This document shows positions 2,110 to 5,543 of a stretch of 64,000 nt of DNA, one piece after another. The notes beneath the pieces are model-generated. The model did no database searches and was not told the origin of the DNA. It was given only the letters and a program-made list of their open reading frames with translations. Position 1 is the stretch's first letter; each line of letters opens with the position of its first letter. Origin of the DNA: Escherichia phage BEU50; the sequence record OM632671.1; one strand, given 5' to 3'. The translations under genes were made by a program, and so were the position numbers.

Positions 2110-2557
2110 GAAAAATAAAGTGAAAGAACTATCAGCCGGTATTATTTTCCTTACCGAAGATAAAGAATTATTCATGGGGCGTGTAACTGGTTCTCGTCCT
2201 AAAGGTGCATTAGCTCATCGGTGGGATATTCCTAAAGGCCGTGTCGAACCTGGCGAATCTCCTATCGAAGCCGCTATTCGTGAATGCGAAGAAGAAACTG
2301 GGTTTACACAATATGACCCTGCCTTCCTGAAAGACCTAGGCGAACATCATTACTCAGACAATAAGAATATTCATCTGTTCCTATATACCATCCCTGTAGA
2401 GCACGAGCAATTCAGAAACAGTGTTTGTAATTCCTATCATACATTCCCAGACGGACGACAGATTCCTGAATTTGATGCATTCGCTTTAATTAAACCTTCT
2501 CAATGGGAATATGTAATGGGCAAATCATTATATAAGGTGCTCACCACCCTCCTATAA
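2099..2557 (+). CDS. nudE: Nudix hydrolase
   Basis: Nudix box GRVEPGESPIEAAIRECEEETGF; sits immediately upstream of e as in T4. Confidence 0.85.
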   Translation: MMSKKNKVKELSAGIIFLTEDKELFMGRVTGSRPKGALAHRWDIPKGRVEPGESPIEAAIRECEEETGFTQYDPAFLKDLGEHHYSDNKNIHLFLYTIPVEHEQFRNSVCNSYHTFPDGRQIPEFDAFALIKPSQWEYVMGKSLYKVLTTLL

Positions 2558-2565
2558 GTAATAAA

Positions 2566-2589
2566 TACCTCCTATAAACGTGGGAGGTA
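2566..2589 (+). promoter_or_regulatory. hairpin sequestering the e ribosome-binding site
   Basis: TACCTCC (2566-2572) pairs with GGAGGTA (2583-2589); loop TATAAACGT. Confidence 0.45.
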
Positions 2590-2591
2590 TT

Positions 2592-3080
2592 ATGAATATA
2601 TTTGAAATGCTTCGTAATGACGAAGGTCTTAGACTGACTTTATACAAAGACACCGAAGGCTTTTGGACGATTGGCATAGGCCATTTAGTAACAAAGAACC
2701 CGTCTTTAGCCGTAGCTAAAGCTGAACTTGACAGAATGATCGGACGTAAATGCAACGGTACAATTACCCTTGATGAGGCTGAAAAGCTATTTAATGAAGA
2801 CGTTGATAAAGCCGTTCGCGGAATCTTGGGTAATGCTAAACTTAAACCGGTATATGATTCTTTAGATGCGGTTCGTCGTTGTGCATTGGTCAATATGGTC
2901 TTCCAAATGGGTGTAGCAGGCGTCGCCGGTTTTACTAATTCTCTTCGTATGCTTCAACAGAAACGTTGGGATGAAGCGGCAGTAAATCTAGCCCAATCTA
3001 AATGGTATCGTCAGACACCTAATCGCGCGAAACGTGTAATCTCAACATTTAAAACAGGAACTTGGAAAGCGTATATATGA
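2592..3080 (+). CDS. e: lysozyme (endolysin)
   Basis: MNIFEMLR...GIGHL...[13 protein letters not shown] matches T4 lysozyme along its length; ORF-track start 2580 is GTG. Confidence 0.95.
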
Positions 3081-3358
3081 AAACATATAGTGAATTTTTA
3101 TCAGAATCTATTCTTAACGAAGCTACTGACACATTTGCAACTAAGCTAGGTGCAGCTTTGGTTGAAGCTGAAAGTCTATTAGCACGTATTTCTGAACTTG
3201 CTAGTAAGATAGATACTCGCAAATTTGAACGTACCAGCGATATCGCTAAGCTTGAAGCTTTGTTACGTATGTGCGATAAACCGGAAGAAATCGCTAAGAA
3301 CGGCTCGTTAATGAAACAACGTCTTGAAAAATATATTTCAGGCGCTTCAGAAAAATAG
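3077..3358 (+). CDS. internal-protein-like protein with capsid targeting sequence
   Basis: N-terminus [10 protein letters not shown] resembles T4 IP targeting sequence MKTYQEFIAE; ATG overlaps e stop (ATGA). Confidence 0.55.
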
Positions 3359-3359
3359 T

Positions 3360-3412
3360 GTTTACTTCCTCCAAGGACTTTGATACTATACATTCATCAA
3401 CTACTTGGAGGA
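3360..3412 (+). promoter_or_regulatory. early promoter inside inverted repeat (upstream of denV)
   Basis: GTTTAC 3360-3365; arms TCCTCCAAG (3367-3375) and CTTGGAGGA (3404-3412), distal arm is the SD. Confidence 0.5.
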
Positions 3413-3416
3413 AATT

Positions 3417-3830
3417 ATGACTCGTATCAATTTAACACTTGTTTCTGAACTGACTGACCAACATCTTATGGCTGAGTATCGTGAATTACCACGCGTATTT
3501 GGTGCAGTCCGTAAACATGTTCAAAACGGTAAACGTGTAAAGGATTTTAAAATCTCTCCAACATTTATCTTAGGCACAGGTCACGTAACATTCTTTTACG
3601 ACAAACTCGAATTTTTACGTTTACGTCAAATCGAGCTAATCGCTGAATGTTTGAAACGTGGTTTCAAAATCAAGGACACGACAGTCCAGGATATTTCCGA
3701 CATCCCTGCCGAATTTCGTAATAATTATGTCCCGTCCGAAGCGTCCATTGCGATAAGTCAAGCACGCTTAGATGAAAAAATTGCTCAACGTCCGACTTGG
3801 TACAAATACTATGGTAAATCAATTTACTAA
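3417..3830 (+). CDS. denV: endonuclease V, pyrimidine-dimer DNA glycosylase
   Basis: [12 protein letters not shown]...[11 protein letters not shown] matches T4 DenV; ORF-track start 3405 is TTG. Confidence 0.95.
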
Positions 3831-3836
3831 GGAAAA

Positions 3837-4097
3837 ATGAAAATGTATCAAGAATTTATCATTGAAGCAGATGCCAAAGGTCCTAAATTTAAAGTTAAAG
3901 CTTTCATTGGTGATGCGGAAGACTTTGGCTCATTAAAACGTAATGGGTATTCTTTCTTAGGTGGCGATGGTAAAGAAATCAACACCTATGCAAAACGTAG
4001 TGAAATTGCTTATGTTGTAGCAAGTCCTAAAGTAGATGTTGACGATATTGGATATGATTTTAACAACTTCGGAATTATTTCTGGCGGTAAAGCTTAA
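3837..4097 (+). CDS. internal-protein-like protein with capsid targeting sequence
   Basis: N-terminus MKMYQEFIIE. Confidence 0.6.
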   Translation: MKMYQEFIIEADAKGPKFKVKAFIGDAEDFGSLKRNGYSFLGGDGKEINTYAKRSEIAYVVASPKVDVDDIGYDFNNFGIISGGKA

Positions 4098-4100
4098 ATT

Positions 4101-4130
4101 GTTTACGCTTAAGTATTAATATGGTATAAT
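4101..4130 (+). promoter_or_regulatory. early promoter
   Basis: GTTTAC 4101-4106, TATAAT 4125-4130. Confidence 0.5.
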
Positions 4131-4160
4131 TACTCTATCAAAACAAACAAGGAAACAAAA

Positions 4161-4475
4161 ATGAAAACGTATAAAGAATTTATTGCAGAATCCGCCAACC
4201 AACGCGTTGAAGGTGGTTATATTTGGATTGAACAAGTTGAGCCACCGAGCCGCACTTCTACAGGTAAATGGAAAATTACTGTTGACGGTCCTGGTGGTAA
4301 ACGTAGGACTCTTAAAGAAATTAATGGGTACTATGAAGAAGCTCTTTCGGATGCAGGAACTTACATGATGCAAATCATGATTAAAAACCCTGAAAACCGT
4401 TTTGCAGCTAAAGTCTTCCGTCGTATTGGTAATAAACTTTATGATGCATACTCTAAAAACTTCCCTAAAGAATAA
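4161..4475 (+). CDS. internal-protein-like protein with capsid targeting sequence
   Basis: N-terminus MKTYKEFIAE. Confidence 0.65.
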   Translation: MKTYKEFIAESANQRVEGGYIWIEQVEPPSRTSTGKWKITVDGPGGKRRTLKEINGYYEEALSDAGTYMMQIMIKNPENRFAAKVFRRIGNKLYDAYSKNFPKE

Positions 4476-4500
4476 CATAAATTAAAACAATAGGAACAAA

Positions 4501-4830
4501 ATGAAAACATATCAGGAGTTTATCACTGAAGTTACATTATCTGCGGAACAGAAAGCTGCTATCGAAGAAGGTAAAAATCCCAAAGTAACATACAAAGTAA
4601 ATAGTAAAGGCGTTTTTGATGGCTTGGTTCAAGACCCTGAATTGAAAAAAGCTCTTTCTAAAACTAATGCGTACTTTGCTCCTAAATTTAACACAGCCGG
4701 TGTACTTATTGGATTGGATGTATTCAACTCTAAAGGTGTTCTATCTAATGCCTTTGGTTATGCCGCTAACAAAATTACCAAAGCCGCATGGGAATCCAAT
4801 ACCAAACAAGCTCAAAAGCCTAGAGTATAA
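4501..4830 (+). CDS. internal-protein-like protein with capsid targeting sequence
   Basis: N-terminus MKTYQEFITE. Confidence 0.65.
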   Translation: MKTYQEFITEVTLSAEQKAAIEEGKNPKVTYKVNSKGVFDGLVQDPELKKALSKTNAYFAPKFNTAGVLIGLDVFNSKGVLSNAFGYAANKITKAAWESNTKQAQKPRV

Positions 4831-5003
4831 TTCTTGCCTAATAAAGGGAAACGCAACCTCTCCTCATGAACGTCGAGTCCTCTGAGTGATGTACCTTTTC
4901 CAACCTGTAATAAGGTCGAGCGCAATGCGGTAATGGGTTTACATAGCGAGTCGAAGGACCTAACATGTGCCACGGAATGGCCCCAACCTAAAAGAGAAAC
5001 TAA

Positions 5004-5543
5004 ATGAGAACATTTTTAACTGGACCTTATCTATCCCTGATGAATGCTTTTACACACCATTCTGATGCTAGAGTAGAAGAAATTTGTAAGAACGGTTATA
5101 TCCCACCGTTTGAAGACGTACTCAAGCAGTACTGTACACTTCGTTTAGACGGCGGCAGACAATCAGGTAAATCGACCGCAGTAACTAATTTTGCTGCTAA
5201 TTGGCTGTATGACGGTGGAACAGTTATTGTTCTTTCTAATACTTCAGCTTACGCTAAAATTTCTGCAAATAACATTAAAAAGGAATTTTCTCGTTATTCT
5301 AGCGATGATATTCGATTCCGTTTATTTACTGATTCTGTTCGTAGTTTTATTGGCAATGAAGGTTCTAAATTCCGTGGATTAACGCTTTCTCGTATTCTGT
5401 ATATAATTGACGAGCCTATTAAAGCTCCTGATATGGATAAGATTTACAATGTCCACATTAAAACAGTACAGCACTGCTGCAAAAGCAAATATTGCATCGG
5501 CGGTAATGCTCGTCCTCAATTTTTTGTGATTGGAATGCAATGA
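5004..5543 (+). CDS. hypothetical protein with P-loop-like motif (179 aa)
   Basis: GGRQSGKST motif. Confidence 0.5.
   Translation: MRTFLTGPYLSLMNAFTHHSDARVEEICKNGYIPPFEDVLKQYCTLRLDGGRQSGKSTAVTNFAANWLYDGGTVIVLSNTSAYAKISANNIKKEFSRYSSDDIRFRLFTDSVRSFIGNEGSKFRGLTLSRILYIIDEPIKAPDMDKIYNVHIKTVQHCCKSKYCIGGNARPQFFVIGMQ

Follow-up and report, generated by a model that had tools for sequence, protein, structure and literature searches.

Do four small phage genes, whose products are unrelated to each other beyond a common ten-residue leader, encode internal proteins of the head that enter the host together with the genome, and if so, against what would they be directed? The question is raised by a gene cluster in the window, by which we mean the whole 64-kb stretch of DNA analysed here, and which belongs to an RB69-like Mosigvirus (98% identity to RB69 and 99.7% to NRG-P0074). 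The e-denV-vs.8 interval that holds the cluster is reportedly, following Repoila 1994, one of two classical hypervariable Ip loci in T-even phages.

Capsid-targeting leaders around denV

The four ORFs, here called IPa to IPd, were found exactly as the original prediction had described them, together with their T4-like N-termini (Table 1). All of them lie at a location typical of the T-even Ip family, between e and vs.8 and around denV, in synteny with ipIII-ipII-denV of T4. The T4 gene order here is e-ipIII-ipII-denV-vs.8, so that both ip genes precede denV, whereas in the present locus one Ip gene precedes denV and three follow it. The genes had been described as four in tandem; their number is right, but they are not strictly tandem, since denV, a non-Ip gene and a conserved resident of the locus, stands between the first and the second. 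IPa starts with an ATG (3077) that shares bases with the stop of the lysozyme gene e (ATGA), and in the ORF listing its reading frame is extended to an upstream TTG at 3062. For IPb, the first ATG keeps the capsid-targeting sequence (CTS) in register; in the NRG-P0074 annotation the gene begins at the second ATG.

Table 1. Features of the e-denV-vs.8 locus, in window coordinates
Feature	Position	Strand	Remarks
IPa, 93 aa	3077-3358	+	Orthologue of RB69ORF127c; member of the Ip5 family
CTS-coding segment of IPa	3077-3106	+	Y4, F7, L8, E10; predicted gp21 cut after Glu10
Intergenic regulatory cassette 5' of denV	3357-3422	+	Early-type promoter and inverted repeat
denV, endonuclease V	3417-3830	+	From RB69 and NRG-P0074 annotation
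IPb, 86 aa	3837-4097	+	Orthologue of RB69ORF125c
CTS-coding segment of IPb	3837-3866	+	MKMYQEFIIE
Predicted T4 early-type promoter 5' of IPc	4101-4130	+	GTTTAC then TGGTATAAT; from sequence
IPc, 104 aa	4161-4475	+	Ip10; orthologue of RB69ORF124c
CTS-coding segment of IPc	4161-4190	+	MKTYKEFIAE
IPd, 109 aa	4501-4830	+	Orthologue of RB69ORF123c
CTS-coding segment of IPd	4501-4530	+	MKTYQEFITE

The claimed likeness to the T4 leader MKTYQEFIAE, with which T4 IPII and IPIII do indeed start, was close: IPc and IPd depart from it at one position each, IPb at two and IPa at three. When all six frames of the window were searched for MKTYQEFIAE, allowing three substitutions at most, four sites only were returned, all on the + strand, and the looser pattern M[KR]x[YFW]x[EDQ][FLYIM] matched the same four and nothing else, no further CTS ORF being found in the 64 kb. 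By chance, 200 first-order Markov simulations of the window gave a mean of 0.005 matches and a maximum of 1. Mutagenesis in T4 has linked CTS positions 4 and 7 to targeting and positions 8 and 10 to cleavage (PMC9026906), and each of the four leaders keeps Y4, F7, I or L8 and E10, as is characteristic of the T-even Ip family. At related loci, 70 distinct CTS proteins give the consensus MKTY[QNK]EF[IL][TA]E[AS], with Y4, E6, F7 and E10 near-invariant. The leader-coding DNA forms a direct-repeat family (D1) in which the four members are 66-81% identical, with synonymous differences among them, which points to conservation at the protein level.

Downstream of the leader the four proteins had been called unrelated, and our comparisons agree: BLASTP between the mature parts found nothing below E = 0.09, and hhalign, run on family alignments from which the leader had been removed, gave a probability of at most 0.6% for every pair. 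IPc and IPd share phrog_3966, which suggested that they might be remote homologues, but the profile-profile comparison without the leader rejects this kinship. Across about 35 related loci, at least 16 unrelated mature families are joined to the leader, with one to five per locus, and a cassette swap and deletions have their breakpoints at the leader. At locus L007, the mature-coding part of IPc (4190-4491) is swapped for an IPIII-like cassette, one breakpoint falling where the CTS codons end and the other 9 nt short of the following start codon, and IPd is missing from loci L006 and L022. Cassette swapping is demonstrated by this analysis, as are the sequence features, the identity of the locus and the family membership of its genes. 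Recombination inside the conserved leader and ribosome-binding-site DNA would have exchanged such cassettes and so placed unrelated mature parts on a common leader.

Families of the mature proteins

The Ip5 (RB15; ipV of Yersinia phage PST) and Ip10 (Pol; Shigella phage SP18) proteins were reportedly named by Repoila et al. 1994. IPa, listed in UniRef and RefSeq as 'internal head protein', falls into the PHROG of that name (phrog_3499, E = 2e-46) and aligns with Ip5 of RB15 and ipV of PST at 47.6% identity over 84 of its 93 residues (E = 2e-15), and IPa and Ip5 fall into one BLAST-linked family. IPa is a diverged subfamily; the Tequatrovirus copy of Ip5 occupies the other Ip locus (57B-tRNA.4), whereas its IPa relative abuts e. 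IPc shares a 90%-identity cluster with Ip10 of phage Pol (CAA84455), is 72% identical to Ip10 of SP18 over 104 residues (E = 3e-46), and is 96-97% identical to Tequatrovirus proteins labelled internal head protein. IPb belongs to phrog_2667, again 'internal head protein' (E = 7e-21) and likewise named in the RefSeq entry of RB69; its 217 phage records include those of Gaprivervirus SP18 (gp123) and Salmonella phage Melville.

IPd, rarer than the other three, is unnamed in every source, all of its 90 phage records being 'hypothetical'. It is almost confined to Mosigvirus, although Dhakavirus AnYang has a homologue of 36% identity at this locus, and is carried by only about one-third of the genomes that have IPa. 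When 1.84 billion representatives were searched exhaustively by HMMER with mature IPd, only 8 matches were obtained; besides IPd itself and a 119-aa phage-like protein, these were long repeat proteins (MBG, cadherin-like, collagen) that we regard as spurious. At 95% identity or more, the records number 232 for IPa, 131 each for IPb and IPc, and 76 for IPd, and the families of IPa, IPb and IPd have members among Tequatrovirus, Gaprivervirus, Dhakavirus and Enterobacter phages.

The likeness to T4 IPI-III consists of the ten-residue leader, the small size, the locus by e and the mutually unrelated mature parts. It does not extend to orthology of those mature parts, as BLASTP likeness stops at residues 11-18, and the T4 proteins belong to PHROGs 4363, 7857 and 5341, as against 3499, 2667 and 3966 for the four. 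No fold or domain of the four hints at a function: neither Pfam nor NCBIfam gave anything above noise for any of them, a PDB sequence search returned no meaningful match, and AlphaFold2 models of IPc and IPd were of low confidence (mean pLDDT 49 and 53) because only near-identical homologues could be supplied as input.

Probable packaging, targets and the DNA sugar

We consider it probable, at roughly three chances in four, that the four ORFs belong to the T-even Ip family and occupy the e-denV-vs.8 locus of a Mosigvirus, and that their products are packaged, cleaved and injected, most likely as anti-nuclease proteins. The N-terminal CTS would bind the assembling scaffolding core of the prohead, and gp21 would cut after Glu10, leaving mature proteins of 83, 76, 94 and 99 residues that would begin with SILNEATD, ADAKGPKF, SANQRVEG and VTLSAEQK. 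Retained beside the DNA inside the head, they would enter the host with the genome and act ahead of any phage gene expression. We infer the packaging, cleavage and injection steps from T4. The prohead protease gp21 and gp22, gp67 and gp68 are encoded in RB69, where genes 67, 68, 21, 22 and 23 are annotated; the protease and scaffold genes lie outside the window, and their presence was judged from RB69, which is 98% identical across the region. As capsid-targeted, processed and injected internal proteins, which is what they had been proposed to be, the four are well supported by this context, namely by the locus, the CTS residues, the Ip5 and Ip10 families, and the gp21 and scaffold of RB69. 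In the only Mosigvirus virion proteome that we found, that of mar005P1, five proteins were detected and none is one of the four. Mass spectrometry of virions of this closely related phage did detect a CTS-like protein, MYTFNEFLAE..., which is encoded at another locus. The virion protein MAR005P1_00015 was considered as a product of one of these genes and rejected, as it maps near tRNA genes.

As for the targets, we hypothesize an anti-restriction function, in which the proteins, each with a narrow target of its own, would most likely inhibit host nucleases that are modification-dependent (type IV, GmrSD/McrBC-like) or otherwise belong to the first response. For every gene of the Ip loci, published work takes an anti-defence role as its working hypothesis, and the T4 proteins Ip1, Ip2 and Ip3 are injected inhibitors that each block a different GmrSD-type enzyme (PMC12373910). 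A CTS protein of Bas37 blocks McrBC (bioRxiv 2025.11.20.689424); this protein, Bas37_0260, is small, has the same N-terminal packaging motif and lies at an Ip locus, but is otherwise unrelated and comes from the other one, the ipI locus, and Ip targets thus exceed GmrSD. When ip4-10, a set that presumably includes Ip5 and Ip10, were screened against eight GmrSD variants, no reproducible inhibitor was found (PMC12373910). GmrSD-family enzymes do attack Mosigvirus DNA, and RB69 and the Mosigvirus NP stay sensitive to UTI89 GmrSD and BrxU, so that neither phage has an Ip set that covers these enzymes. The text of the Silas et al. supplement shows no leader of the four. It is conceivable, though unlikely, that IPd would inhibit, after injection, a defence with which no Ip protein has so far been connected, such as an arabinosyl-cytosine nuclease or a non-GmrSD first-response system.

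For the cluster as a whole, it is rather doubtful that the injected effectors are aimed specifically at defences recognising arabinosylated cytosine. Mosigvirus DNA, and hence that of this phage, bears arabinosyl cytosine derivatives; IPd is found almost only in Mosigvirus, its relatives in Dhakavirus being distant; and the inactivity of Ip4-10 was seen with glucosyl-hmC T-even phages, which leaves room for other substrates. However, the 96-97% identical copies of IPc/Ip10 reside in glucosyl-hmC Tequatroviruses, the families of IPa, IPb and IPc span genera with other modifications, and what the known Ip proteins of T4 bind is the enzyme and not the DNA. The original prediction had suggested a tuning to the alternative DNA sugar; this finds no support, given the Tequatrovirus copies of Ip10, the occurrence of the other three families in several genera, and the separate IPI orthologue that RB69 carries at the other Ip locus.

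Packaged proteins might instead serve a physical role in the head, in charge neutralisation, DNA condensation or as an aid to ejection. Mature IPc and IPd are basic (pI 9.6 and 9.7), and a T4 head contains IPs in about 300 copies, which bind DNA under low-salt conditions (PMC9026906). Mature IPa and IPb, however, have a pI close to neutrality (6.3-6.4), the gain, loss and exchange of the genes among close relatives and their unequal record counts would be unexpected of a structural requirement, and all three T4 IPs are specific nuclease inhibitors (PMC12373910), so that we hold a physical role to be improbable.

Regulatory elements and significance

The cassette upstream of denV contains a T4 early-type promoter, GTTTAC ... 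TACTAT, and an inverted repeat (I1, UUCCUCCAAG / CUUGGAGGAA) whose 3' arm contains the denV Shine-Dalgarno sequence and a GGAG. PeSL-like elements are known at the two IP loci (Arbiol et al. 2010, PMC2839356), and the denV cassette resembles such promoter/stem-loop elements. The top promoter-like site of the region is the one upstream of IPc, with 10 of 12 matches and an extended -10, from which we infer a promoter function. Like PeSL-type cassettes, which mediate modular shuffling in T4-like phages, the locus combines flanking early promoter and stem-loop elements (3357-3422, 4101-4130) with swaps and deletions at conserved junction DNA; its best-defined breakpoints, however, lie in the leader DNA and ribosome-binding site and not in the stem-loop.

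No late promoter (TATAAATA) was found in or beside the cluster, the recognisable promoters being early-type, and late synthesis must therefore rely on read-through of e transcripts or on persisting early protein. These early-type promoters 5' of denV and IPc, and the observation that T4 IPIII without its CTS still functions when expressed in the cell (PMC9391042), would fit early accessory proteins of an ordinary kind that stay in the cytoplasm, unpackaged, and keep a common N-terminus for translation initiation or with the cassette junction, but there is little likelihood of this, as the leader is conserved as a peptide in 70 distinct proteins with synonymous DNA variation, CTS ORFs are confined to Ip loci, and the ten CTS residues of T4 alone suffice to package foreign proteins (PMC9026906).

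A separate observation concerns the region 5' of vs.8 (4838-4987), which has a pseudoknotted RNA leader supported by covariation, the pseudoknot pairing CGC (4852-4854) with GCG (4946-4948). It gave no match to Rfam or to tRNA and no similarity to T4 rnaC or rnaD; its single-sequence folding energy is no better than that of shuffles (z = +1.96), so the case for it comes from covariation only. A role as a replication origin was rejected, since T4 oriC is near rI.-1, about 6 kb off.

With the packaged Ip proteins as the preferred reading, the four are ordinary members of the family. The literature already covers the concept, the locus and most of these genes, and the value of the result is therefore that of a candidate list rather than a discovery. 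Only four of more than 30 Ip variants have known targets, and the locus adds four candidates, all orphans, in a phage whose DNA is arabinosylated, which makes it a clean setting for the question of whether it is the enzyme or the DNA modification that Ip specificity follows. Since Ip proteins arrive with the DNA, they decide survival of the first seconds of infection; they are compact natural inhibitors of type IV restriction and host-range determinants relevant to phage therapy cocktails.

The capsid-targeting leader and the proteins behind it

All six frames of the 64-kb window were scanned for MKTYQEFIAE, allowing three substitutions or fewer; the four matches are those of the small ORFs IPa, IPb, IPc and IPd, and a looser leader pattern returned the same four ORFs and no others. 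Simulated windows contained a mean of 0.005 leader matches by chance, and the four leaders are far from a chance occurrence. The N-termini are exactly those reported in the original prediction, and the T4 capsid-targeting sequence (CTS) quoted there was also correct, as both IPII and IPIII of T4 begin with it. Among 70 distinct CTS proteins of T4-like phages, taken from about 35 denV loci, the leader consensus was M-K-T-Y-[QNK]-E-F-[IL]-[TA]-E-[AS]. In T4, residues 1-10 of IPIII are enough to package foreign proteins, targeting needs positions 4 and 7, and cleavage by the gp21 prohead protease depends on positions 8 and 10 (Black laboratory, summarised in PMC9026906); Y4, F7, L/I8 and E10 are present in all four window proteins. 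The leader-coding DNA of the four genes is only 66-81% identical, with synonymous differences, indicating that the leader peptide is under selection and not merely copied. The predicted cut after Glu10 leaves mature IPa, IPb, IPc and IPd of 83, 76, 94 and 99 residues with predicted pI values of 6.3, 6.4, 9.6 and 9.7, respectively, and the core and protease genes 67, 68, 21 and 22 are present in RB69. By analogy with T4, the four proteins would be packaged, cleaved and injected.

Past residue 10, the proteins proved as unrelated to one another as had been proposed, since BLASTP shows zero pairwise similarity and profile-profile comparison of the family alignments, with the leader removed, gave every pair a probability of at most 0.6%. 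IPa-IPd were also considered as orthologues of T4 IPI, IPII and IPIII, and this was rejected because similarity ends after residues 11-18 and the PHROG families differ. IPa shows 47.6% identity to Ip5 of phage RB15 (GenBank Z35082, Repoila et al. 1994), and likewise to ipV of Yersinia phage PST. IPc shares a 90%-identity cluster with Ip10 of phage Pol; its identity to the Ip10 protein of Shigella phage SP18 is 72%, and its Tequatrovirus copies (96-97% identity) are labelled internal head protein in some records. Judged by sequence comparison, families named in 1994 account for two of the four genes: IPc is Ip10 itself and IPa a diverged Ip5 relative. RefSeq labels IPa (RB69ORF127c) and IPb (RB69ORF125c) of RB69 'internal head protein'. 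The sole un-annotated element of the cluster is IPd (RB69ORF123c), labelled 'hypothetical' across all records and sources examined; its only distant relative, at 36% identity, lies at the same locus of Dhakavirus AnYang, and mature IPd, searched exhaustively against 1.84 billion representatives, gave no informative match. Structure prediction and domain searches of IPa-IPd yielded no functional clue. The other Ip locus of RB69 holds two further CTS genes, one orthologous to IPI and one Ip7-like, so that about six such proteins are encoded in RB69-like genomes.

Two annotation differences were observed. In the RB69 reference (NC_004928, L001 4662-4934, against window 4161-4475), ORF124c is annotated as 90 aa and tblastn splits the IPc match in two, which indicates a frameshift, genuine or a sequencing error, in this copy of Ip10. 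The annotation of Escherichia phage NRG-P0074 starts IPb at the second ATG, whereby the leader loses its first two residues.

Organisation, expression and plasticity of the locus

Window 2500-5100 is 99.7% identical to NRG-P0074 and 98.2% to RB69, both Mosigvirus. Since T4 carries e-ipIII-ipII-denV-vs.8 at the equivalent position, the locus is one of the two classical T-even Ip loci. The description 'four tandem' genes holds for their number and only loosely for their arrangement, because denV splits IPa from IPb-IPd.

Features of the locus (window coordinates)
Feature	Position or length	Strand
nudE	2099-2557	
lysozyme e	3' end at 3080	
IPa	3077-3358	+
promoter/stem-loop element of the kind described at Ip loci	3357-3422	
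denV	3417-3830	+
IPb	3837-4097	+
early-type promoter, good match	4101-4130	
IPc	4161-4475	+
IPd	4501-4830	+
non-coding RNA-like element, immediately upstream of vs.8	4838-4987, 150 nt	+
spacer IPd/vs.8	173 nt	
vs.8	5004-5543	

The IPa ATG and the e stop codon overlap, and IPa may be translationally coupled to e. The late promoter TATAAATA is absent within and beside the cluster, its closest one-mismatch versions lying immediately upstream of e, and the + strand of the cluster has no terminator-like site. Thus, late supply of Ip proteins would have to rely on read-through from e, one possible late source, or on lasting early protein, and this supply is a weak point of the packaging model. Upstream of e, a hairpin CCUCC ... 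GGAGG (window 2553-2600) sequesters the Shine-Dalgarno sequence and encloses the late-promoter-like TATAAGTA, AATAAATA and TATAAACG, resembling the known T4 arrangement that restricts e translation to late transcripts; late e transcripts would continue into IPa. In the promoter/stem-loop element, an early-type promoter lies upstream of denV and has its -10 enclosed by the inverted repeat UUCCUCCAAG / CUUGGAGGAA. The 3' arm of the repeat carries the Shine-Dalgarno sequence of denV together with GGAG, the motif cleaved by RegB. The ribosome-binding sites of IPb, IPc and IPd (AAGGA, AAGGAAA and AGGAA) are without GGAG.

Across the sampled loci, which carry one to five CTS proteins each, we found at least 16 families without relation beyond the leader, and IPa, IPb, IPc and IPd are four separate ones among these. 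In Mosigvirus contig L007, whose flanks are 97% identical, identity covers the first 29 nt of IPc, ends at 4189 and returns at 4492, nine nt 5' of IPd, with an IPIII-like cassette in place of the intervening sequence. In contig L006 IPd is missing as well, and contig L022 has IPa and denV only. Copies of at least 95% identity occur in 232 (IPa), 131 (IPb), 131 (IPc) and 76 (IPd) records. This cassette exchange is the modular shuffling previously described for Ip loci. Arbiol et al. 2010 (PMC2839356) reported PeSL-like promoter/stem-loop elements at both of these loci, and the element at 3357-3422 is of this kind. The largest Ip cluster among the loci examined is that of Dhakavirus AnYang (L086 573-3168), where denV is surrounded by five CTS genes, one from a 132-aa family and the others IPIII-like, IPII-like, IPd-like and Ip7-like.

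A conserved RNA-like element upstream of vs.8

Between T4-like genera the RNA-like element retains 74-88% nucleotide identity, compared with just 35-67% identity for the denV and vs.8 proteins, and all three reading frames across the element are broken in the window. We aligned 34 sequences: the window, T4 (NC_000866, L003 6816-6944 on the minus strand) and 32 other loci. The alignment supports a fold of several helices (P1-P5) in which CGC 4852-4854 pairs with GCG 4946-4948 as a pseudoknot. In the proposed fold 92% of cells pair, against only 27-47% in slid controls, and compensatory changes occur at 18 of 29 pairs versus 9.8 ± 1.4 in shuffles, none of 500 shuffles reaching the observed value. 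Moreover, the four pseudoknot pairs all covary though they were left out of the search model. The folding energy by itself is unremarkable. In most of the 34 copies the 3' end lies 12-17 nt from the vs.8 ATG. We found no match in Rfam 15 and no copy in bacterial genomes. On the evidence of covariation, the motif is a candidate for a previously undescribed cis-regulatory leader or a riboswitch-like RNA.

Genomes carry one copy, apart from two T4-like contigs with a tandem pair (L016 3913-4034 + 4048-4174; L122 8963-9088 + 9098-9225), the first copy being without the 3' hairpin; the pairs are reminiscent of tandem riboswitch arrangements. The annotated start codon of T4 vs.8 (L003 6254-6913, 219 aa) lies inside the element. 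Because the equivalent 41 codons are interrupted by stops or frameshifts in the window (4838-5003) and most relatives, where the ORF begins at MRTFLTG, the N-terminal extension of T4 vs.8 is probably an over-call. NRG-P0074 has a minus-strand 'hypothetical protein' annotated over the element (window 4838-4966).

Virion evidence, restriction targets and the DNA sugar

The single Mosigvirus virion proteome found, that of the close relative mar005P1, lists only five detected proteins, and none of IPa-IPd is among them. One of the five mass-spectrometry proteins, MAR005P1_00015, starts MYTFNEFLAE, indicating that CTS-type packaging operates in Mosigvirus. Its gene (L091, LR027390.1, 6284-6910, minus strand, 208 aa) is outside the window, near tRNA genes and outside both classical Ip loci, and its N-terminus MYTFNEFLAETE is a CTS-like leader without the usual Lys2.

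T4 Ip1, Ip2 and Ip3 inhibit GmrSD-type type IV restriction enzymes, a different one each and without cross-protection, and every gene of both Ip loci has been proposed to target variants of this enzyme family (PMC12373910). In the same work ip4-10 had no reproducible effect on further GmrSD variants, so that Ip5-like and Ip10 proteins are still orphans. McrBC is inhibited by a CTS protein of phage Bas37. The suggested tuning to the arabinose sugar is unsupported, since a near-identical IPc occurs in glucosyl-hmC Tequatroviruses and the IPa, IPb and IPd families are spread across several genera.

The observation is correct. CTS gene clusters belong to the textbook picture of T-even genomes: they were described in 1994, and their function was taken up again in 2022-2025. 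The anti-defence reading restates the current hypothesis. Mosigvirus DNA has arabosylated cytosines and is cut by GmrSD-family enzymes; UTI89 GmrSD restricts RB69, and BrxU restricts Mosigvirus NP. Selective pressure on Mosigvirus exists, but the present Ip sets leave UTI89 GmrSD and BrxU uncovered.
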